NCBI GenBank assembly: GCA_963813455.1 | Contig: CAWEZF010000008.1 | Coordinates: 1,874-65,873 of the forward strand | Direction of reading: 5' to 3' | Origin: an uncultured delta proteobacterium | GTDB taxonomy: Bacteria; Desulfobacterota; Syntrophia; Syntrophales; Smithellaceae | Length of the DNA: 64,000 nt | Shown here: piece by piece, positions 4,626-63,911 of the stretch | Position numbering within the stretch: position 1 is the stretch's first letter | How the letters are laid out: each line of letters starts with the position of its first letter | The notes under the pieces: generated by a model | Database searches by the model: none | Told to the model about the DNA's origin: nothing | What the model saw: only the letters and a program-made list of their open reading frames with translations | Position numbers and translations under genes: made by a program

Positions 4626-5891
4626 ATGAATAATGATATTAAAAATATCGGAATCATCGGGTCCGGCGTCGCCGGGCTTACCGTAGCTTATCTGTTGCAG
4701 AGAAAATACAACATCACACTGTTTGAAAAGAATGATTATATCGGAGGGCATACACACACTATTGTTATACCGGAAGGTCCGGATGCCGGGATACCGGTTG
4801 ATACCGGATTTATCGTGATGAACCACAAAAATTATCCTTTTTTTACCAGACTCTTGGAAACGCTCGGCGTGGAGCTGAGGGATAGCGTCATGTCTTTCGG
4901 ATATCATGACGAGGTCACCGGGCTTGAATACTCAAGCCTGCATTTCAATGGCCTGTTTGCCCAGCGCCGTAACCTCTTTAATCCCCGCTTCTATTCAATG
5001 CTTTTTGAGATTATGAGATTTTTCCGCGAAGCTCCTGTGGCGCTTGAGGAAGGAAAGCTCGCGGGGCTCACTCTGGGCGATTATTTCTCCAGAAACAACT
5101 TTTCCGCTTATTTCATTGAGCACCATATCTTGCCGATGGGTTGCGCTATCTGGTCCACGCCGACCAATACGATGCTCGATTTCCCCGCTGAGTCTTTTAT
5201 ACGTTTCTACAAGAACCATGGGCTACTTTCTGTGGGCGGTCAGCCGCAATGGCGCACCGTTGTCGGCGGTAGCCAGTCATACGTAAAAAAGATACTTAAT
5301 GATTTCAAAGGCAAGGTATATAATAATAAACAGATTACTTCGGTAAAGCGTATTGAGGGCGGCGTTACGGTTCTGGCGCAGGATGGCCAGCAATTCAATT
5401 TTGATGAGGTAGTTATTGCCGCGCATGCGGACGAAGCTTTTACCATGCTTGCGGACCCTTCCGCTGATGAGCGAAATTTCTTATCACCATGGCGTTATAA
5501 CAGGAACCACACGATTCTTCACACTGACTCTTCCGCAATGCCTCCAAACCGGCGTGCATGGTCAAGCTGGAATTTTATTCGCGAATCGGAAGGCGATAAT
5601 GCGCTTTCACTTACCTATAACATGAACCTGCTTCAGGGTCTTTCCGCAAAGGAGCAGTATTTTGTAACGCTTAACCGGCGCAAGCCCATTCCACGCAGTA
5701 AAATCATCGCCGAGATGCTCTACACGCATCCTATTTATACGGCTGATTCCATGAGCACTCAAAAAGATCTGCCATCGCTCAATGGTAAACTCAATACATG
5801 GTTTTGCGGCAGTTATTTCGGATACGGATTTCACGAGGACGCAGTCCGCTCAGCGGTGGCTGTTGCGCGGGATTTCGGTATAGAACTATGA
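4626..5891 (+). CDS. FAD/NAD(P)-binding amine-oxidase-like oxidoreductase (usual partner of DUF1365/CFA synthase)
   Basis: 421 aa with N-terminal GIIGSGVAGLTVAYLL dinucleotide fold and a strong GGAGGAGG RBS. Shares an ATGA overlap with the next gene. Confidence 0.8.
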   Translation: MNNDIKNIGIIGSGVAGLTVAYLLQRKYNITLFEKNDYIGGHTHTIVIPEGPDAGIPVDTGFIVMNHKNYPFFTRLLETLGVELRDSVMSFGYHDEVTGLEYSSLHFNGLFAQRRNLFNPRFYSMLFEIMRFFREAPVALEEGKLAGLTLGDYFSRNNFSAYFIEHHILPMGCAIWSTPTNTMLDFPAESFIRFYKNHGLLSVGGQPQWRTVVGGSQSYVKKILNDFKGKVYNNKQITSVKRIEGGVTVLAQDGQQFNFDEVVIAAHADEAFTMLADPSADERNFLSPWRYNRNHTILHTDSSAMPPNRRAWSSWNFIRESEGDNALSLTYNMNLLQGLSAKEQYFVTLNRRKPIPRSKIIAEMLYTHPIYTADSMSTQKDLPSLNGKLNTWFCGSYFGYGFHEDAVRSAVAVARDFGIEL

Positions 5892-7891
5892 ATTCCAGGA
5901 TTTGTCGCGGAACAATCATGCACCGGCGTCACTGGCCTGTAGAGCATCACTTCACATTTCCCTATTATTTTTATGTCTTCGATCTTGATGAACTAGACGA
6001 AATCAATGGCAGCGTAAAAATCTTCAACCACAATAAGTGGAACATCGTTTCGATTCATGACAAAGACTATCTCGCGGGCAGTGGTTCGATCAAGGAAAAA
6101 ATACTCCACTATCTACAGGGAGCCGGATACGCGGATGGAATCTTCCGCATTGAGCTCGTGACAAACGCGCGTTATTTTGGTTACGTGTTCAATCCCGTTT
6201 CATTCTATTATTGCTACCGCCAGGACGGAAGTGTGCATGCGGTTGTGGCAGAAGTTAACAATACCTACGGCGACAAACATCTCTATATCCTCGATAATAA
6301 AAGCGGGAAGAAATTCGTGCCGATTAAGATCACTCACGGCAAGGAATTTCACGTTTCTCCGTTTAACGATTTGAAGGGACATTACGAGTTCAGTTTTGAG
6401 GAACCAAAGGGTGCATTTCGCATCAGCATTACTTTGGTGCGTGATGAGGGAGTTATTTTGGAAGCGGTATTATCCGCCAAAGCTTCCCCCCTGACAAGCG
6501 CGACTCTCACCAAAACCATCCTCAAATACCCGATCACCTCGTTTGTCACGATTCCACGAATATTCATACAGGCTTTAAAGCTCTTTTTCATAAAGAGACT
6601 CAAGTTTAACGACAGGCCGGAGCCACCAAGCGCAATGACGATCAAACATGCAAGGACTACAGCGCCCCGAAAGCCCAATTCTATTCAGAAAACAAGGATG
6701 GTTATTGTCAAAAAAATCCTGTCCGGAGCTGACAAAGGATTACTGGAGATTGAGCTACCCGACCGATCGCGCTATTTTTTCGGAAAAGAGAGCTCCGGGC
6801 CTAAGCTTTCTCTGCGAGTGAAGAATTACCGATTTTTTAATCGCTTAATCTCATCCGGAGAGATCGGATTTGGCGAGTCTTATACAGCGGGAGAGTTTGA
6901 AACCGACGATCTGGTCGGGGTCATTTCTTTTTTCATCCAAAACAAGAAAGCGCTTGGCGATAGAGGGATGCTGGGAAGTATTCTGAATAAATCTGCGGAA
7001 TTCATAAGGCACCAGATCCTCGACAACACCAAAAGCCAAAGCAGGAAAAATATCCGTGCCCACTATGACCTTGGCAATGAATTTTTCCAGTTGTTTCTCG
7101 ACAAGAACATGATGTACTCCTGCGCGATTTTCAACGAACGGCAGGAAAGCATCGAATCTGCCCAAAGTAATAAAATCGATACGATCATCACCAAGGCCGG
7201 CATACGCGGTTCTGATCATGTGCTGGAGATCGGTTCAGGCTGGGGCGGTTTCGCCGTAGAAGCCGTAAAGCGAACCGGCTGTCGTATAACCACGATAACC
7301 ATATCGGAAGCGCAGAGACAATACGCCATTTCCCGCATCAAGGAGGCCGGTCTTTCGGAGAAAATTTCAGTGCAGCTCTGTGACTATCGTGAAGCCAGAG
7401 GTTTATTTGATGTGATTGTTTCGATCGAGATGCTTGAAGCGGTCGGGCATCAACACCTTCCCTCTTTTTTTCAGGCGTGCGAGAGGCTCCTCAAGCCATG
7501 TGGTATCGCGGTGATCCAAACGATTACCGTGCCCGACCAGAATTACGAAATATACCGTACCCATTCCGACTGGATACGCAAACACATATTCCCGGGTGGG
7601 CACCTTTCTTCCATAACGGCCATTGCCAATGCAATGACAACGAGTTCAAATTTTTACATTGAAGAACTACAGAGCATCGGGATGCACTACGCGCTTACCC
7701 TCGCCAAATGGAAGGAGCGATTTGTCGATAATCTCCCGCAAATATCAGCCCAGGGATTTGATGATTCCTTTGTGCGCAAATGGCTTTACTACTTTTCCGC
7801 ATGTGAAGCGGGATTTAGAAACAGAATTATCAATGACGTCATCATTAAGATCTCGCGAACGATGAACATGCGCCTTGAAGAACCATCTTAA
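5888..7891 (+). CDS. DUF1365 domain fused to a cyclopropane-fatty-acyl-phospholipid-synthase-type SAM methyltransferase
   Basis: Single open frame. Start set at ATG 5888 (MNSRICRGTIMHRRHWP, a DUF1365-type N-terminus). The C-terminal half has CFA-synthase features (GFGESYTAGEF, VLEIGSGWGGFA). Confidence 0.8.
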   Translation: MNSRICRGTIMHRRHWPVEHHFTFPYYFYVFDLDELDEINGSVKIFNHNKWNIVSIHDKDYLAGSGSIKEKILHYLQGAGYADGIFRIELVTNARYFGYVFNPVSFYYCYRQDGSVHAVVAEVNNTYGDKHLYILDNKSGKKFVPIKITHGKEFHVSPFNDLKGHYEFSFEEPKGAFRISITLVRDEGVILEAVLSAKASPLTSATLTKTILKYPITSFVTIPRIFIQALKLFFIKRLKFNDRPEPPSAMTIKHARTTAPRKPNSIQKTRMVIVKKILSGADKGLLEIELPDRSRYFFGKESSGPKLSLRVKNYRFFNRLISSGEIGFGESYTAGEFETDDLVGVISFFIQNKKALGDRGMLGSILNKSAEFIRHQILDNTKSQSRKNIRAHYDLGNEFFQLFLDKNMMYSCAIFNERQESIESAQSNKIDTIITKAGIRGSDHVLEIGSGWGGFAVEAVKRTGCRITTITISEAQRQYAISRIKEAGLSEKISVQLCDYREARGLFDVIVSIEMLEAVGHQHLPSFFQACERLLKPCGIAVIQTITVPDQNYEIYRTHSDWIRKHIFPGGHLSSITAIANAMTTSSNFYIEELQSIGMHYALTLAKWKERFVDNLPQISAQGFDDSFVRKWLYYFSACEAGFRNRIINDVIIKISRTMNMRLEEPS

Positions 7892-29414: not shown

Positions 29415-29415
<1 letters not shown>
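29380..29415 (+). terminator. rho-independent terminator after the ppiD-like gene
   Basis: 10-bp stem GGGAATCATC/GATGATTCCC followed by TTAATTTTT. Confidence 0.65.
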
Positions 29416-29490
<75 letters not shown>

Positions 29491-29558
29491 TTGAGAGTGT
29501 TTAAAAAATGTGCTGCCCAATTAACACAGGCATAAAACACTGTCAACTTGATTTTAGC

Positions 29559-29586
29559 TTGACTTTATCCCGACCGCTTATATAAT
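29559..29586 (+). promoter_or_regulatory. near-consensus sigma70 promoter for tRNA-Leu
   Basis: TTGACT, 16-nt spacer, TATAAT. The -10 element ends 10 nt before the mature tRNA 5' end. Confidence 0.55.
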
Positions 29587-29596
29587 CGCACCCCGT

Positions 29597-29684
29597 GCCG
29601 GAGTGGTGAAACTGGTAGACGCAGGGGACTCAAAATCCCCCGATCTTTACGGTCATGTCGGTTCGATTCCGACCTCCGGCACCA
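29597..29684 (+). tRNA. tRNA-Leu (anticodon CAA)
   Basis: 88-nt type II tRNA: acceptor GCCGGAG/CTCCGGC, anticodon loop CTCAAAA, long variable arm, T loop GGTTCGATTCC, encoded CCA. Confidence 0.9.
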
Positions 29685-30772: not shown

Positions 30773-32219
30773 TTATGTTGATTTGCAAAGCGCTTCGAGT
30801 TTTTTGGTAAGAATTTCCCTGATTACTTTCGGATTGGCTTTGCCGCCGGATGCCTGCATCGCCTGGCCGATTAAAAACCCCAAAGCTTTTCCCTGGCCGT
30901 TTTTATAATCGGCAACGGCGGACGGCTGATCGCCCAGCACCTTGTCGATCAAAGAATCAATTTCTCCGTGATCCGATACCTGCTTGAATCCTTTGGCGCG
31001 CACAATCGCTTCCGGCGATTCATCGCTTTCAAACAAATGCGCCAGCACTTCGCGCGCGGCGTTGGCGTTGATTTCATCGCGCGCCAGCATTTTGAGCAGG
31101 GCGGCAAAACGCGCGGGTGTTACGGATGTCTGCCCCAGCTCCTGGCGCTTTTCTTTTACCGCGGGGATTAACTGCGTGGTGAGCCAGTGCATGGCCGTGC
31201 GCGCGGCTACTCCTTCTTTAATCAGATTTTCAAAATAAAGAGCTACTTCCGCGTCGGTACTCAGATAGGAAGCTTCTTCCGCGGAAAGCCCGTATTGTTT
31301 GACAAAACGCTCCGCGCGGGCGGCGGGCATTTCCGGCAGGCGCGCGCGCAGGACTTCAATCTCTTTTTTGGACAATTTAATTACCGGCACACAAGGGTCG
31401 GGAACGCACGGGCCTTCAAATTTGGCGCGCATCGGCGTGGTGACTTTCTTTTCCGGATCCCACAGGCGCGTGTGCAGCACGATTTTTTCGCCGGCCTGAA
31501 CCGCCGCGCCCTGGCGGTTGATTTCATACGCGATGGCATCCCCCACGTGACGCACCGAGTTCATGTTTTTTACTTCCACTTTGGTATTCATCTGGCTTGT
31601 GCCTCTGGGGCGGATGGAGATATTGGCGTCAACGCGCATTGTGCCGTTTTCCATGCTGCACTCCGATGAACCGACGTTGCGCACCTGCGCGCGCAGCGCT
31701 TTGAGAAATTCCATCGCGTGATGCGGCGAGCGCAAATCCGGCTCCGATGACAATTTCCACCAACGGCGCTCCCGCGCGGTTGAAATCCACCAGGCTTACC
31801 GGTTTGCGCCCTTCCATTTCATGCACCAGCTTGGCCACGTCTTCTTCCATGTGGATGTGATGAATGCGCAATCTTTTGGCCGCGCCGTCTTCGTCGGTGA
31901 TGTCAATCCAGCCGCCTTTTGACAAAGGCAAATGCGCCTGCGAGAGCTGATAGCCTTTGGGCAAATCAGGATAGTAATAAACTTTCTGGTCAAAGGCGCT
32001 CACGGGCTGAATTTCGGCATTTAGTCCCAGGCATAAAAGCGCGGCTTTTTCCAGCGCCGCCTGGCTAAGCCTGGGCGACGCGCCGGGAAACCACAGGCAG
32101 ACAGGGCAGGTATTAATATTGGGCTCGTCGCCGGGGTTGTTGGGGCAGTCGCAAAACATTTTTGTCGCGCAGTTAAGTTCGATATGAATTTCCAGGCCGA
32201 TAACCGCTTCAAAATCCAT
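30773..32219 (-). pseudogene. gatB: Asp/Glu-tRNA amidotransferase subunit B, one frame break (or sequence error)
   Basis: N-terminal ORF 31629-32219 (IGLEIHIELN, VDFNRAGAPLVEIV). C-terminal ORF 30773-31753 (SEPDLRSPHHAMEF...YqQ/GatB_Yqey tail). Removing one A near 31748 restores EIVSEPDLRS. Confidence 0.85.
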
Positions 32220-32221
32220 GA

Positions 32222-33409
32222 TTATTTTCCTCCCCCGCCAACGAGATATTCTCCCATATCCAAGAGCCGCCCATCGGCCAATCTTGCCGCTGTCAGTTGC
32301 AGGCCTTCCCGTTTTTTATCCGGCAGATAAAGCGCGGGATGGCCGGTGACGTTGGCAAACGCTGTGTAAATAAAGTGCGCGTAGGTTTCGGCAAGTGTCG
32401 TGGGGTTTTCCGCGGCGGCAGTATTGATAGTGGGCAGAATTATAAAATCAGTTTGTTTTGTCAGCTTTGTCATTTGGGAGACCAAGCCGCGCGCGCAGGC
32501 GGCAGGCGTTTTCGTAGGCAGAATAACTTTCAAACTGAAAATACGCACCCTGAATTAAGTAGCTTTTTAAAAGTGTTCCGAAAGCCGCGCCGCGCGAGGA
32601 AAGATACATTTCGTTCCAGTTTTTCGCGCCCGGCTCGCGCTTTCCGTAGCGCACGGAATCGTAGCGCCCCGCGCACGATGAAGCCTCCACCGAGCCCACA
32701 ATTTGATGCACCGCGAGAAATTGGGAAAAATCAGGAAAGGCTAATTCCTTGATGACAAAACCGGATTTTTTTAATTCATTTAATTTCTGTTCAAAACTTT
32801 CGCGCTCTTTGGCCGGCATTTCCTTTAAAATATCTTTGATGACGCCCAGCGTAGTTTTGGCCGGATCAATTTTTGCAGGTTTTAGGTCCGGCGTTTTTTC
32901 ATCGGGAAGAGAAGAGTCGCGCTCATCGGGGCCCGCGATGGTCTGAAGAATATCACGGATATTTTTAATCTCTCCCGATAAAATACCGTATGCTTCCATA
33001 GAAGGAATCAAACCGGCCAGGCCGAAGCGCGAAACCAGCCCGTAGCTTGGTTTAAATCCGCAAACTCCCGCGCGCGCGGCAGCCAGACGCGCCTCACCCG
33101 CCAAATCCAAAACCAGCTCGGCATCCGCCGCGTTTTTTTGCAGCGCGGCATTCCGGCCATGCTGTCTTTGAGGCCGAAGCCGAATTCGCTCATGCGCGCG
33201 TAGCCGGCAAATTCAGCGCCTTCGCCTGCCATTTTATCCACAACAGCCGCGTTTTCCAGCGCGTGGAATCCGGCCAAAGCTTTTGAACCTGCTTCAGTCG
33301 GCCAGCCGGTAACGGAGATATTCGGCTGAAGCGCGATTTTCATTTTCTGCAAAGCGCCTTTGGAGGAAGCGGCTTTGCCGGTATTGCGGTAGAAAAAAAT
33401 TGAATCCAT
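32222..33409 (-). pseudogene. GatA-like amidase-fold subunit lacking the Ser-cisSer-Lys triad; two frame breaks
   Basis: Three overlapping ORFs (33008-33409, 32448-33110, 32222-32548) are collinear with GatA. The joined length is about 395 aa, versus about 485 aa for GatA. Catalytic motifs are replaced (see findings). Confidence 0.7.
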
Positions 33410-33423
33410 TTTACAGCTTCCCC

Positions 33424-35544
33424 CTATTCCAGAATATTGGCGACTTTAAAGTAATTGCCCTTAAGAGCGGGCGCGCTTTTTAGCAGTTGCCCTTTTTCGG
33501 CAAGCTCTGATTTTTTTGCCGTAAGCCCCGGGCGCGCGATACCCGCCGCGGTAACTACCGAACGGATTGGCTCATCATCAATGGAAAGATTATTAACTTC
33601 CGCGGCAAGCTTTTGCGCCTCACGCAAAGCTTCTTCCATAACCGTGCGCTCTTCCTTGGCGATGCCGATGCGCGATACCCACGAGACGCGATCGAGCAGA
33701 TTTTCTTTTTGCGCCTCGCCGGGCAAAACATCTTTGCCGCCCAGATTCAAAAGCCCCAGTTCGGCCAGCTGTTCTTTTTTGACACCCGCGGGCGCGCCGG
33801 TCAAAGGACAGCCGGCGGAGCGGTTTTTGGGGAAGGCGATAACTTCGCGGATGGATTGCGTGCGCAGAATCATCGAAACCGCGCGGTCCATGCCCAGCGC
33901 CAGGCCCCCGTGCGGCGGCGCGCCAAAGTCAAACGCGCGCAGGAAAAATCCGAATTTTTCTCTCATCTCTTCATCCGTCAAACCCAGCGCGGAAAAGATT
34001 TTGCGCTGCACTTCACGGTTGTTGATACGGATACTGCCGCCGCCTAATTCCTCGCCGTTGATTACCAGATCGTAGGCGCGCGAGCGCAGAGAAAGAAGCT
34101 CTTCCACATTTTTCGGATCGAAATCCACGCGCTCCGGCGCGGTAAAGGGATGATGGCTTGATGTCACGCCGCCTTCGTCCGTGGGTTCAAAAAGGGGAAA
34201 GTGCGTAACCCAGACCGGATAAAAATTATCTTCGCCAATCAGCCCCAGGCGATTCGCCAGATGCAGGCGCAACTGCCCCAGCGCCTGAAGTAACAATTGC
34301 GTAAGACGGGTCGGCAACCATGATCAGCACGTCGCCGTCTTGCACTTCAAAACGTTTCTTTAATTCATCGAGTTCCGCCGCGGAAAAAAACTGCACGATG
34401 TTGGATTCCAGCTTGCCGCCTTCGGCTCGCATCCAGGTCATGCCTTTGGCGCCGAAAGAAGGCGCGATTTCCTTGGCGTATTCATTCTGCAAAACGTTTT
34501 TGCTCAAACTCGCGGATTGCTGCTTAATGTTTATTCCCTTGATGCATCCGCCGCGCTGCAGAATCTGTTTAAAGATGGAATAATTGGTGTTGGCGAAAAC
34601 ATCCGTCACATCCACAAACCTGAGCCCAAAGCGCAGATCCGGCCTATCCGAGCCTGTTGAATCCATCGCCTCGGCATAAGTCACGCGCGGGAAAGGACGC
34701 GGCAATTCAATGCCCGCCACGGCAAACATTTTTACGGTAAGTTCTTCAATAAGTTCGTAGAGAAATTCCTCGTCGATGAATGAAGCTTCAATGTCGAGTT
34801 GGGTGAATTCCGGCTGACGGTTGGGGCGCAGATCTTCATCGCGGAAACAGCGCGCCAGCTGAAAATAACGCTCCAGGCCGCCGATCATCAAAAGCTGTTT
34901 GAAAAGCTGGGGCGATTGGGGCAGGGCGTAAAAATTTCCCGGGTGCACGCGGCTGGGCACCAGATAATCACGCGCGCCTTCGGGCGTGCTGGCGGTGAGC
35001 ATGGGAGTTTCCACCTCCACAAAACCGCGCGCGTCCAGAAATTGCCGCACGCATTGAAAAATTTTATGCCGAGCAATAGATTTTCCTGCATGGCCGGACG
35101 GCGGATATCCAGATAGCGGTATTGCAGGCGTAAATCTTCCGAGACATTTTCTACAGAAGCGTCTTCAGCGCCTGCCACCATGGCTTTGTCGGAAATCGGA
35201 AACGGCAGAGCATCTGATTCGCTAAGCACCGAAAGCTCGCGGACAAATACTTCCAGCGCGCCTGTTTCAATATTGGGGTTTTGAGTTCCCTCTATTCTTT
35301 TTTTAACCTCGCCCGTTACGGCAATGCAGTATTCCGTGCGCAGCGTTGTCGCCGTTTTGCAGATATTATCTGAAGAGGCCTCCGGGCTGAAAACAATCTG
35401 CACAATGCCGCTGCGATCGCGCAGGTGAATAAAAAGCAGGCCGCCGTGGTCGCGGTAGGCATCCACCCAGCCGCAAAGCTGCACGGTTTTGCCGGTATGC
35501 TGTAAAGACAAATCGCCGCAAAAAATACGCTCAGAAAAATTCAT
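33424..35544 (-). pseudogene. aspS: aspartyl-tRNA synthetase with C-terminal GatC-like domain; two frame breaks (or sequence errors)
   Basis: Three overlapping ORFs carry class IIb motifs (FYALPQSPQLFKQLLM, FRDEDLRPNRQPEFTQLD, GGLALGMDR). The last ~95 aa resemble GatC. Confidence 0.85.
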
Positions 35545-39118: not shown

Positions 39119-39451
39119 ATGAAAGCTCCTCAGGAAATCCTTGATCTTGTAGCTCGCTTTGACCAAAACATTGATGCCTACCAGTCCGGCAAATACAACG
39201 AGGCACAAATACGCCGGGAATTTATTGATCCTTTCTTTAAGGCGCTGGGCTGGGATATTGAGAACATATCCGGCTACGCCGAAGCTTACAAAGACGTCAT
39301 TCATGAAGACGCGATAAAAATCGGCTCCGCCAATAAAGCCCCTGATTACAGCATCCGCATCGGCGGCACACGCAAATTCTTTATCGAAGCGAATGAAAAA
39401 CCGTCTCCAGAAAAGCTTAGGCAGATCCGTACAGATCAGAGAAACAGCTAA
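39119..39451 (+). pseudogene. N-terminal fragment (~95 aa) of a type IIG restriction-modification / PglX-like enzyme
   Basis: LVARFDQNIDAYQSGKYNEAQIRREFIDPFFKALGWDI...KAPDYSIRIGGTRKFFIEA is the PD-(D/E)xK N-terminus of such enzymes. Similarity is lost after about 39420. Confidence 0.6.
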
Positions 39452-40565
39452 CAACAAACTTAATGCTAATGACTACGATTTCCGTATCATTGATAGCCCA
39501 ACTGAATTGCACAATATTATCCGTGAGAAGAACAGAGAAAAGAATAAAGCTAGATTGGTTGCAGGTTACTGCTGGAAATGGATAAGCAAACGAAACCCCC
39601 AACTCGAGGATATTGTTATTGGCGATTACAAGGCTACATGGAATCTCGACACCGATGGGCAAGCTTGGCTTATTAAGCCTAATTCTGTAAGTGAGGTTGG
39701 TTGCATACATACCTGTCAGGGACTAGAATTAGATTATGTTGGTGTTATAGTTGGTCCTGATTTAATAGTTCGAAATGATAAAATCATTACACAACCGCAA
39801 GAACGTGCTAGCACTGATAGATCAATACACGGATGGAGAGCTCTTTTTCGAGAAAAACCAGGCGATACAATGAAGCGCCTCGATAGGATTATTAAAAACA
39901 CATATCGTACGCTCATGACACGTGGACAAAAAGGTTGTTATGTTTATTTTGTTGATGATGAAACGCGACAATATTTTGAAAAATGTATGGAGAAGCCGAT
40001 CGCTAAATCTTTAAAAGAAGAACATAAGCCCACTGTTGTTTTGCCATTCAGGCGCTTACCACCAGAGGAAGTAAGACCTTTCGGAAATTGCGTTCCTCTG
40101 TACGATCTTAAGGTAGCCGCCGGAACATTTAGAGATGAACAACAGGTTGCGGATGTATATGGCGGATTAAGTGAGCAATCTATTCAAGATAATGAATGGG
40201 TTCAACTTCCCGATGCCTTTAGACACCAGCGGGGCCTTTTTGTCGTGCAAGTTGTTGGTGAATCGATGAATCGCCGAATACCAAACGGTTCATGGTGTCT
40301 CTTTAGGCTAAAACCTACAGGTACCCGGCAAGGCAAGATCGTTCTTGCACAACATAGAGGTATTGCGGATGCTGACAACGGAGGAGAATTCACCGTTAAG
40401 AAATACGAAAGCAATAAAAGGCTTCTTTCAGATGGTACTTGGCGGCATACCTCAATTACTCTTCGACCTGATACTACAGCACTAGGATACGAACCACTTA
40501 CATTTACAGAAGAACAAGTAGATGATGTAACAGTAATTGCGGAATTAGTTGCTGTGCTGGGTTGA
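39393..40565 (+). pseudogene. 5'-truncated DUF2075 (helicase-like) C-terminal half fused to an S24 LexA-type peptidase domain
   Basis: ARLVAGYCWKWISK...VGCIHTCQGLELDYVGVIVGPDL...YRTLMTRGQKGCYVYF (DUF2075 C-terminal half). Then VPLYDLKVAAGTF...VVGESMNRRIPNGS...FTVKKY (S24 Ser/Lys). No P-loop half is present. Confidence 0.6.
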
Positions 40566-43884: not shown

Positions 43885-45289
43885 CTACTGCACCGCCCTG
43901 CCCGGCCTTCTCTTTACCCTTACCGCGGCTCTATCTGCGGCCTTTTGCTTCAATACCGGAACAACAAAAATAGTATAGAGCGCGCACATGCCGAAGAACG
44001 CGGCCATGACAACGGCCACCCAGTAATTGGCAAACATCACGTTGCCGGCGGCGTCTTTGCTTATATCGGTAAAAATGCCAATGAGCAGGCCGGCAAAAAT
44101 TATTATGGTGATGATGGGAATCAGATAACCGCCGGGCACTTTGAAATCCCGCGGGGTATCCGGCATTCTTCTTCTGAGCCTTATGACGCAGGCAGCCATC
44201 ACAACATAGATGAAGCATTCAAGCGCCGCCGCCATGATAATTATGAAAAGATACTGGCCGGAAATAAGGACAAAGAAGCTCACAAGAAGCGCGAAGAACA
44301 TAAGCCCGAGAATCGCAACCCACGGCGTGGCGTGATCCGGATGCAGCCTGCTGAAAACGCTGGGCAGAACATTGTCCCTGGCCATCGCGTAGGCGAAACG
44401 CGATGTGTTGAGAAGCCCGGAATTAAAAGACGTGACCGACGCAAGTATGCTCATGACTATAAAAACGGCAAGCCCGGTTTTCCCGAACAGGTTCTGGCCG
44501 AAAAGGATATGCGGGATGCTCGTACCCGAAAGCCTCTGTTCGGGCGTCAGGCCGATCCACATGGCGACGGTAAAAAGCGCGTATGTCACGGAAAGCAGGC
44601 CGATGGCAATCATCATTCCCTTGCCGATAAGCCTGTAATCGGTTGTTTCCTCGGCCAGCGGCGTCACCCACTCGAAACCCGACATAAAGGAAAACGCCCA
44701 CAGCGGCAGCGGTAATGACATTGGAAAGCGTGAATTGCGGATTTGTGAGTGCCGGAATAATGCTCAGGTCGATTTTGAAGATTGCGTACAGGGAGACGAA
44801 AATCAGAAAGCCGATCATTGTGTAAGTGAGGATGTCCTGAACAAAACCTGTCAGCCTGATGCCGCGGTAATTTATTGCCGCAACCGCCAGAATAAAAAAT
44901 ACCAGCCAGAAAGCGCGATCAAAAGTCGGGCTTACAATATCGAACGCGTGGACAAGTACGCTGGCCAAAAGGTAACTTTCGGCGCCGACCATGGAAATGC
45001 CGAGTAGGACATAAAAACTTCCGATTATAATCGCCGCCTTTTCATTGAACGCTTTCTGGATGAACAGCTTTATGCCGGCGGCTGTCGGATACTGGGAGGT
45101 AAGCTCGGAAAAGCACATGGCCGAAAGCAGGCACAAAAGCCCGGCAATCAGTATTGATATCCATGCCAGTTCGCCGACAACAATCGTCGCCACCTGAAAA
45201 CCGGCAAGGTAGCAGGATGTGGCCAGCGCCATTCCCGCGGATGCCGAAATAACCGTCCGCAGTTTGAGTACTTTTTTAAGTGTGGTCAT
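43885..45289 (-). pseudogene. APC-superfamily amino acid/polyamine transporter, one frame break (or sequence error)
   Basis: ORFs 44423-45289 and 43885-44721 are collinear. The join FLYVGF|EWVTPLAEE lies at a GGGTTT run near 44670. Confidence 0.75.
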
Positions 45290-63816: not shown

Positions 63817-63911
63817 GACCGGCTGAGTTGGCTGGTGCCGGCCGCGGGCTTCAAACCCGTCGGGCAAACAATGCAATGTTTGCTGTTGGGGTTCGATTCT
63901 GAAGCCGGTCT
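63817..63911 (+). tRNA. tRNA-Sec-like tRNA, anticodon UCA (selC or a selC-mimicking tRNA); weak T arm, no encoded CCA
   Basis: Hand fold: 8-bp acceptor GACCGGCT/AGCCGGTC, 6-bp D stem with 4-nt loop, anticodon loop CTTCAAA, 25-nt variable region (7-bp stem GCAAACA/TGTTTGC), GTTCGAT T loop, and U at the discriminator position. Confidence 0.5.

Follow-up and report, generated by a model that had tools for sequence, protein, structure and literature searches.

A three-gene operon was analyzed on the minus strand (positions 35544-30773) of a 64,000-nucleotide stretch of contig CAWEZF010000008.1, from an uncultured delta proteobacterium of the Smithellaceae; this whole stretch is referred to below as the window. 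The operon specifies, in order, an aspartyl-tRNA synthetase (AspRS) fused to GatC (aspS::gatC), a GatA-like protein and GatB, and each of the three genes is split over more than one reading frame. tRNA-dependent amidotransferases (AdTs) combine a glutaminase (GatA or GatD) with a kinase/transamidase (GatB or GatE) to which it is coupled by a tunnel. The GatA-like subunit of the aspS::gatC operon, which lacks the catalytic triad and is named GatA-dagger here, descends from GatA and keeps the GatA fold and GatA-specific segments. The six residues that perform or position glutamine hydrolysis are all replaced in the alignments described below, and the replacements have themselves been fixed by selection. 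The system is a variant of the known GatCAB-type transamidosome, distinguished by a conserved pseudoenzyme GatA and by fusion of AspRS to GatC, and it is widely distributed and recurrent.

The GatA-like gene is covered by three minus-strand open reading frames (ORFs; 33409-33008, 33110-32448 and 32548-32222), which join into one protein. After correction of the frames this protein contains ...DSMAGAALQKNAADAE..., and the strings IALQPN, LDLAGEARLAAARAG, GVCGFKPSYGLVSRFGL and ANVTGHPALYLP are all found in the joined translation. An initial annotation, made from the window alone, had proposed that the three frames form a protein collinear with GatA. This was borne out by a match to the Pfam Amidase family (PF01425; E=3.3e-48) and by the best sequence matches in the PDB, which were GatA chains (3h0l_A; E=2.6e-40). 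Comparison of the GatA-dagger profile with canonical GatA using hhalign gave a probability of 100% (E=3e-69). The AlphaFold model of an orthologue (P0004) had a mean confidence score (pLDDT) of 83.8 and a predicted template-modelling score (pTM) of 0.88. In a Foldseek search this model was closest to the GatA chains 3kfu, 3h0l, 2df4, 4wj3 and 3al0, with template-modelling (TM) scores of 0.86-0.90 and root-mean-square deviations of 2.5-2.8 A, as against TM scores of 0.72-0.80 for other amidases.

The active site was examined in three alignments: HMMER against solved GatAs, MAFFT with 70 canonical GatAs, and the hhalign profile-profile comparison. Numbering follows Staphylococcus aureus GatA; adding 7 to the Aquifex aeolicus GatA numbering gives the S. 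aureus numbering for all three triad residues, and the same offset served to map the glutamine-binding residues Tyr309, Arg358 and Asp425. In all three alignments the triad Lys79 is replaced by Gln28 (IAVKDN to IALQPN), as the initial annotation had read it, and the nucleophile Ser178 by Glu105 (GSDTGGSIR to VLDLAGEAR). The nucleophile had been reported as changed to Ala, a reading which proved to be a two-residue alignment offset; the Asp and Arg of the two motifs anchor the alignment and thereby place Glu opposite Ser178. The block bearing the cis-Ser had been described as absent, in agreement with the hhalign result, where a single 22-residue deletion removes the GGSSGG loop with Ser154. 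The HMMER alignment offers an alternative in which Ser83 of 'DSMAG' stands opposite the cis-Ser; since this column is just 63% Ser in the family, the cis-Ser is not conserved under either alignment. Tyr309, Arg358 and Asp425, which bind glutamine in GatA (bioRxiv 10.1101/733030) and whose yeast equivalents are given in PMC4027206, correspond to His234, Tyr283 and Phe345 in the window protein. The N-terminus is about 49 residues shorter than that of canonical GatA, and not the roughly 65 first estimated. The overall length had been put at ~395 against ~485 residues, which agrees with the corrected protein of 394 residues, about 90 below the canonical length.

Names in the databases differ, the NCBI annotation pipeline PGAP using 'amidase family protein' and IMG/JGI 'amidotransferase subunit A'. 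Against the NCBIfam gatA equivalog (TIGR00132) the orthologue P0004 scores 235.3 bits, below the cutoff of 481.1, which explains the PGAP name. This equivalog was the best of the matched NCBIfam models, and none of those models names a triad-dead GatA partner.

Residue frequencies were compared between 122 non-identical family sequences and the 70 canonical GatAs aligned with MAFFT. Position 79 is Gln in 92% of the family and Lys in 100% of canonical GatAs, while position 178 is Glu in 100% and Ser in 100%, respectively. At the glutamine-binding positions the family has His at 309 (98%; canonical Tyr 98%), Tyr or Phe at 358 (96%; canonical Arg 98%) and Phe at 425 (87%; canonical Asp 95%). Trp36, Trp264, Asn265 and Gln291 are invariant in the GatA-dagger family only, and the GatA-specific EASS..RYD..RYG segment, KPxYG and SRxG are kept and shared with canonical GatA. 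Orthologues with the same substitutions are thus found in related genomes and, because the same replacements recur in 122 non-identical sequences, they go beyond chance. Two frame errors do occur in the window gene, and sequence errors might be thought to mask a normal GatA which, once corrected, would show Lys, Ser and Ser. The Gln28 and Glu105 codons lie in unbroken frame, deep within unbroken segments, and the same residues are present in the 122 intact orthologues, which makes that explanation exceedingly improbable.

Selection on the operon was estimated from the ratio of non-synonymous to synonymous substitution rates (dN/dS), taken as medians over 27 pairs of intact loci. The values were 0.088 for AspRS, 0.095 for GatB, 0.158 for the GatC tail and 0.219 for GatA-dagger. 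By this measure GatA-dagger is clearly constrained, at a level that resembles the scaffold peptide GatC and not the two enzymes. A decaying second copy of the operon, or an eroded pseudogene, had been offered as one explanation of the lost triad; for the family it is rejected, given 300 loci among GTDB species, a dN/dS of 0.22 and near-invariant replacements.

The family is widely spread. A search of 5.8 billion proteins returned 732 matches to GatA-dagger; the best 120 of the 732 were all intact, with 394-416 residues and 58-90% identity, under names that include Smithella, Smithellaceae and Syntrophales. In a profile search of 1.84 billion representatives about 15 full-length clusters at 50% identity scored 340-561 bits, with a clear gap to canonical GatAs, which reached ~205 bits at most. 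The cluster names add the cultured Desulfobulbus alkaliphilus (WP_205243697.1) and metagenome-assembled genomes (MAGs) of Desulfobacterales, Syntrophobacter and Desulforhabdus; MAGs assigned to Smithella carry the family as well. The scan of GTDB species genomes gave the 300 loci, with intact orthologues of 384-412 residues; Syntrophus buswellii DM-2, of a cultured species, and ORM2a, which degrades benzene, are represented there by complete genomes. A metagenome scan gave 423 stretches carrying GatA-dagger. The gatA-like ORF is intact in 79 of 81 loci. The operon is also carried by many MAGs labelled Dehalococcoidia, Chloroflexota, Verrucomicrobia, Acidobacteria, Planctomycetes and Actinobacteria (among loci L011-L083), with an AspRS 75-84% identical to that of Syntrophales; these labels reflect either misbinning or mislabelling, or horizontal transfer of the whole operon.

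Of the loci long enough to include the flanks, 80 from genomes and 80 from metagenomes, every one has the order AspRS::GatC, GatA-dagger, GatB; distant members (40-47% identity) and the Syntrophobacter locus are among them. The AspRS core and the GatC tail are contiguous and in frame in orthologous loci. The fusion protein of L001, a locus syntenic with the window on a 764-kb JGI contig, matches the NCBIfam model for bifunctional AspRS/GatC (NF009460) over positions 18-723 of 723 with 1323.3 bits, narrowly under the cutoff of 1379. The Pfam GatC domain (PF02686; cutoff 23 bits) was found on orthologous tails at 35.7, 31.2 and 31.0 bits and is weak, at 14.9 bits, on the L001 tail. The full-length NF009460 match and the GatC domains confirm the gene order assigned to the window at the outset. 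The L001 GatB passes the NCBIfam gatB equivalog (TIGR00133 / NF004012) with 569.8 bits against 338. Its whole length can be aligned with A. aeolicus GatB (3h0l_B; 413 bits), its catalytic motifs are intact, and the conserved motifs GLEIH, EED, EIVSEPD and KN-NS are kept.

When all ORFs of the flanks were clustered, the three operon genes alone were conserved and no glutaminase-like gene was found nearby, which rules out a conserved neighbouring glutaminase or partner gene. In one lineage only (L092:8812-10242, also L091), gatB is followed after 160 nt by a generic amidase of 476 residues, which has an intact Lys/GGSSGG/Ser triad and lacks the segments specific to GatA. It is probably a coincidental neighbour, and conceivably a source of ammonia. 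Two distant members of the family have tRNA-Asn (GTT) genes on the same strand ~600-1600 nt upstream of aspS::gatC (L119:3199-3274 and L141:1726-1802). Both tRNAs carry the U1-A72 pair, which bacterial GatCAB requires of tRNA-Asn (PMC4206432). Upstream of the fused operons the only Rfam matches were tRNAs, with neither a T-box nor any other leader RNA among them.

A second lineage, here called Clostridia-like, combines the same two features. In P0156, a full-length GatA of 476 residues, Thr stands in place of Lys, GDC--GCG in place of GGSSGG and Asp in place of Ser; in P0374 these sites read Gln, GPNAVGS and Glu, and Tyr309 is replaced by His. The relatives of P0156 are canonical Clostridia-type GatAs (46-51% identity) and the degenerate P0374 (54%). 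Both proteins pass the gatA equivalog (516 and 494 bits against 481), so that PGAP would name them GatA. Upstream of each lies an AspRS that ends in a GatC domain (L166:1-3142, L167 and L168:197-5204), the fusion protein having 697 residues and a Pfam GatC domain. L168 is the sole Clostridia-like locus to reach far enough, and there GatB follows the triad-dead GatA. The L168 fusion scores 641 bits on NF009460 as against 837 on the generic aspS model and falls outside the Desulfobacterota fusion family; compared with L001, its AspRS is 44% and its GatB 35% identical. The Clostridia-like GatAs are 51-54% identical to canonical GatA and ~28% identical to the short GatA-dagger family, the latter value being that of any canonical GatA. 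Membership of P0156 in that family was ruled out, its identity being 51% to a canonical Clostridia-type GatA and 28% to the family. Because its GatA stands near the canonical Clostridia type and far from GatA-dagger, the Clostridia-like lineage is an independent one. AspRS-GatC fusion and loss of the GatA triad have thus been joined at least twice, partly by the same substitutions. Other degenerate GatAs were met as well. P0151, P0162, P0172, P0173, P0198, P0209 and P0219 (383-416 residues) have lost the triad Lys and mostly the nucleophile Ser, and share more with canonical GatAs (33-41% identity) than with GatA-dagger, while P0168 (487 residues) keeps Lys and Ser and has lost the GGSSGG loop. 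This suggests that GatA has degenerated several times.

On balance we think it somewhat probable that the operon specifies an obligate asparagine transamidosome in which GatA-dagger is a non-catalytic scaffold and GatB amidates with ammonia which does not come from GatA-hydrolysed glutamine and is most likely free. An obligate complex is proposed because GatC is covalently tied to AspRS. GatA-dagger would no longer hydrolyse glutamine and would act as a structural partner that GatC wraps and on which GatB docks; GatC is needed for the folding of GatA and for the GatA-GatB complex (PMC2330236). The AspRS, presumably non-discriminating, would make Asp-tRNA(Asn), which GatB would phosphorylate with ATP and then amidate with ammonia. 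Most likely this ammonia would be free NH3/NH4+. It would come in by way of the GatA-dagger pocket, now remodelled and truncated, and of the old tunnel, or straight at GatB. Ammonia-fed amidation is chemically feasible, since AdTs transamidate in vitro with 20 mM NH4Cl replacing glutamine, the glutaminase being bypassed (PMC4027206). With the loop deleted and the N-terminus missing, the old pocket may lie open to solvent. Speculatively, ammonium may enter at the fixed Glu/His/Tyr/Phe/Trp set, or the tunnel may be kept open by the Glu acting as a mimic of the glutamyl-enzyme intermediate. Direct use of NH3 would spare the ATP cost of glutamine, an advantage to syntrophs that are short of energy and live where ammonium is plentiful.

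The other suggestion of the initial annotation had been a scaffold-only subunit, with free ammonia as the substrate of GatB. It stands as the best-supported mechanism, and several points weigh against it. Assembly of the complex, loss of the glutaminase and the identity of the amide donor are all inferred. A canonical gatA or another glutaminase partner may lie elsewhere in the genomes that carry the operon; the chance of this is greatest in the Clostridia-like lineage, as GatCAB is needed for Gln-tRNA(Gln) by most bacteria of that kind. Glu105, His234, Tyr283, Phe345, Trp36, Trp264, Asn265 and Gln291 are near-invariant, which points to a selected new site more than to a dead pocket, and the term 'pure scaffold' may understate the role of the protein. 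Most delta-proteobacteria encode GatCAB together with AsnRS, and many also GlnRS (PMC4206432), so that the operon may not be essential for translation. It may serve tRNA-dependent synthesis of asparagine rather than being the sole route to Asn-tRNA.

The second of these points leads to a rival explanation, in which the role of GatA-dagger is that of an alternative or regulatory subunit. A canonical GatA or other glutaminase encoded elsewhere would supply ammonia derived from glutamine by sharing or exchanging GatB and GatC, and GatA-dagger would mark a second form of the enzyme used under particular conditions, such as an isoform for high ammonia. Extra copies of the amidotransferase machinery are known, and the Clostridia-like lineage probably still needs a working Glu-AdT. 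In five Smithella loci (L006:15771-17462, L009, L010, L050 and L059) another AspRS of bacterial type, which is unfused and shares 46% identity with the fused protein, lies within 10 kb of the operon, which favours such an arrangement and also suggests that the fused AspRS is the partner that charges tRNA-Asn there. The pair resembles the two-AspRS arrangement of Thermus and Deinococcus. A GatA-like protein can indeed replace GatA on GatB/GatC, as Tse8 shows (bioRxiv 10.1101/733030). Against a separate glutaminase subunit, GatA-dagger sits exactly in the gatA slot and is coupled to gatB across a 2-nt gap, and the only gatC in the operon loci is the copy fused to aspS. A tblastn search with six canonical GatAs revealed no canonical gatA in the 64-kb window or in 6-10 kb around ~165 loci, which is a weak test, as only ~0.6 matches would be expected by chance. 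Taken together, these observations leave the alternative-subunit explanation unlikely.

The near-invariant replacements raise another possibility, namely that GatA-dagger is an enzyme with a rebuilt pocket (Glu105, His234, Gln28, Tyr283, Phe345, Trp36 and Trp264), which would free ammonia from a different donor by a new chemistry. The replaced residues are conserved and do not vary freely, yet they are unlike those of canonical GatA. P0374 independently acquired Gln for Lys, Glu for Ser and His for Tyr, and conservation around the former active site is strong, for instance in LDxxGExRLAA and GFKPSYG. We know of no precedent for amidase-signature catalysis without the Ser-cisSer-Lys triad, and in GatA-dagger the oxyanion/cis-Ser loop is deleted. 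In distant members of the family the Lys position varies (Gln, Glu, Pro or Ser), and the dN/dS of GatA-dagger is 2.3-2.5 times that of the operon's two true enzymes. A catalytic role of this sort is accordingly held to be quite improbable, and the non-catalytic scaffold is retained as the preferred account. A bolder version of the latter would hold that glutaminase-free asparagine transamidosomes evolved at least twice, by fusion of AspRS to GatC and then a rebuilding, and not a mere loss, of the GatA site by convergent changes (Lys79 to Gln, Ser178 to Glu, Tyr309 to His), with the pocket acting as an ammonium entry or the Glu as a tunnel-holding mimic. Fed by free ammonia, such complexes would be the only AdT in a large part of the Desulfobacterota and would save syntrophs the ATP cost of glutamine. 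This version is offered tentatively, being possible and, as a whole, doubtful.

The closest known system is the canonical GatCAB or asparagine transamidosome (AspRS, GatCAB and tRNA-Asn; PDB 3KFU and 4WJ3), which is built from the same three families in the order gatC-gatA-gatB. The likeness extends to the GatA fold (TM 0.86-0.90), an ordinary GatB, the U1-A72 pair of tRNA-Asn and the AspRS partner. Unlike the canonical complex, GatA-dagger is without Lys79, the Ser154 loop, Ser178, Tyr309, Arg358 and Asp425, falls below the gatA equivalog and is ~90 residues shorter, and GatC, which is free there, is here covalently attached to AspRS. The upstream gene probably belongs to a curated fusion family (NF009460 / PRK12820), the model spanning the fusion protein only. 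Tse8, a type VI secretion effector of Pseudomonas aeruginosa, is a GatA-like protein which binds GatB/GatC in the place of GatA and acts without amidase activity, and it too lacks GatA's glutamine-binding Tyr309, Arg358 and Asp425 (bioRxiv 10.1101/733030). It differs in keeping the catalytic triad, in being a toxin that poisons a foreign transamidosome and in lying outside a gatCAB operon, whereas GatA-dagger is a resident, co-evolving subunit. In AtzE-AtzG, a 1-carboxybiuret hydrolase described as a 'vestigial protein complex' (PDB 6C62/6C6G) and found among the structural matches of the P0004 model, a GatA-derived protein has kept its GatC-derived partner after a change of role. AtzE retained catalysis and lost GatB and tRNA, the reverse of GatA-dagger, which lost catalysis and kept GatB, GatC and AspRS.

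Clostridium acetobutylicum possesses an extra non-discriminating AspRS and GatCAB for tRNA-dependent synthesis of asparagine (PMC4206432), again with AspRS genetically coupled to an amidotransferase. A set of this type is a plausible ancestor of the Clostridia-like fused lineage. Its proteins are separate and its GatA is catalytic. The set is said, in work by Saad and colleagues from 2012, to be under T-box control, a leader that was not found upstream of the fused operons analyzed here. Ammonia-dependent counterparts of glutamine amidotransferases exist elsewhere, as in AsnA versus AsnB and in the NH3-dependent NadE. These share the logic of the proposed mechanism, the same amidation chemistry being served by free ammonia in place of a glutaminase domain. 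In them this domain is simply absent, while GatA-dagger would be retained as a conserved, remodelled pseudoenzyme.

Neither a triad-less GatA nor its AspRS-GatC fusion partner was described in the full-text literature searched, a body that some key subscription papers lie outside. The GatA-dagger family is widely spread and, although the glutaminase site is gone, the subunit, the operon and the partners are kept under selection. Should there be no canonical GatA as a backup, this would be the first natural amidotransferase of the GatCAB kind forced onto another nitrogen source, and it would clearly exemplify how a subunit of an enzyme can become a conserved pseudoenzyme scaffold; if there is a canonical GatA elsewhere, GatA-dagger is instead a paralogue or isoform. 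Reconstructions of syntrophic and sulfate-reducing Desulfobacterota which assume glutamine-dependent synthesis of Asn-tRNA may be wrong. The independent loss of the triad beside another AspRS-GatC fusion hints that fusion and loss of the glutaminase are tied by a general rule.

The frame breaks of the window copy (Table 1) were located by global DNA alignment to L001, which is 91.6% identical and whose genes are all intact (706, 394 and 480 residues). For the first break in the gatA-like gene, a junction at an A7 run near 33140 was considered and ruled out, since the homologues and the L001 alignment give a 2-nt insertion at 33151-33152. The five breaks are probably consensus or assembly artefacts and not biology, possibly produced by reads of co-occurring strains piling up on a highly conserved operon. 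Had five indels accumulated neutrally, tens of additional substitutions, most of them non-synonymous, would be expected beside them. The window branch has 38 non-synonymous and 74 synonymous unique changes, the same ratio as in the sister branches (26/54 and 20/41), and this absence of excess non-synonymous change makes artefacts likely. For random error, it is odd that five breaks fall within 4.8 kb, none of them in a long homopolymer, while the seven adjoining genes (purC, ppiD, mreBCD, pbp2 and rodA) have no frame-breaking indels at all.

That pattern, with breaks in all three genes of the operon, would be accounted for if the window copy were a real, recently inactivated and decaying operon of one strain, its function being supplied elsewhere. 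Another gene in the window, a permease at 43885-45289, is also broken, and a frameshifted fragment of the GatA-like protein (P0303; 187 residues) is on the public record. This fragment comes from a single 93.7-kb contig; no other contig carried it and no record carried the window's PpiD-like protein, and contigs with an identical PurC end before any frame break. The dN/dS values of the window against L001 (aspS 0.11, gatA-like 0.20, gatB 0.08) are comparable to those of neighbouring genes and, like the substitution ratios given above, speak against inactivation, which we regard as rather unlikely. It could in any case not account for the loss of the triad, which long predates the strain, and the frame breaks are for that reason uninformative on this loss.

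Table 1. Coordinates in the window of the operon genes, the replaced catalytic codons and the frame breaks relative to L001.
Feature	Position	Strand	Evidence or remark
aspS::gatC, bacterial-type AspRS fused in frame to a GatC-like tail	33424..35544	-	Pfam on three pieces; tblastn to the intact 706-aa L001 protein; three frames here
GatC-like C-terminal tail, ~116 aa with linker	33424..33774	-	tblastn, 89% identity to L001 tail
gatA-like gene, 394 aa after correction	32222..33409	-	Pfam, PDB-chain HMMER, MAFFT, hhalign, AlphaFold/Foldseek
Gln28 codon CAG, site of triad Lys79 (S. aureus GatA numbering)	33326..33328	-	sequence and alignments
Glu105 codon GAG, site of nucleophile Ser178	33093..33095	-	sequence and alignments
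gatB, full length, ordinary (cradle domain and YqeY tail), two frames here	30773..32219	-	Pfam GatB_N, GatB_Yqey
Frame break 1, aspS, -1 nt vs L001	35070..35071	-	
Frame break 2, aspS, +1 nt vs L001	34289	-	
Frame break 3, gatA-like, +2 nt, GGA[AT]GCC	33151..33152	-	homologues read SMAGAALQKN here
Frame break 4, gatA-like, +1 nt inside GCGCGCGCGG run	32488	-	
Frame break 5, gatB, +1 nt, GTC[A]TCG, splits conserved EIVSEPD	31748	-	

Pfam analysis of the pieces revealed the domains of AspRS (OB anticodon-binding, class II core and GAD), an amidase-signature protein, and GatB (GatB_N and YqeY tail). The stop codon of aspS::gatC is separated from the gatA-like gene by a 14-nt spacer, and the stop of the latter sits 2 nt ahead of the gatB ATG. 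The sequence GGCGGGGGAGGAAAATAA (32219-32240) encodes the Gly-Gly-Gly-Gly-Lys C-terminus of the GatA-like protein and is also the Shine-Dalgarno sequence of gatB. This overlap and the position of the ATG imply translational coupling of the two genes, and the overlap may account for the conserved GG(G)K ending of the protein.

The broken permease (minus strand; Pfam AA_permease_2), an amino-acid transporter by its domain, consists of two overlapping ORFs matching profile positions 6-200 and 198-424, and represents a further frameshift outside the operon. On the plus strand at 4626-7891, a 697-residue ORF joins DUF1365 to a cyclopropane-fatty-acid-synthase domain (CMAS), which are usually specified by separate genes; the amine-oxidase ORF ahead of it overlaps it by 94 nt, and it may be a natural fusion or a frame error. 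In a plus-strand ORF at 39393-40565, a Schlafen-group-3-like helicase domain is represented by its C-terminal half alone (profile 176-354) and is followed by Peptidase_S24; this gene appears truncated or rearranged. Genes for tRNA-Ala(GGC) and tRNA-Leu(CAA) lie between ppiD and purC (29415-29684), as they do in L001, and a tRNA-Sec gene is located at the end of the window (63817-63911).

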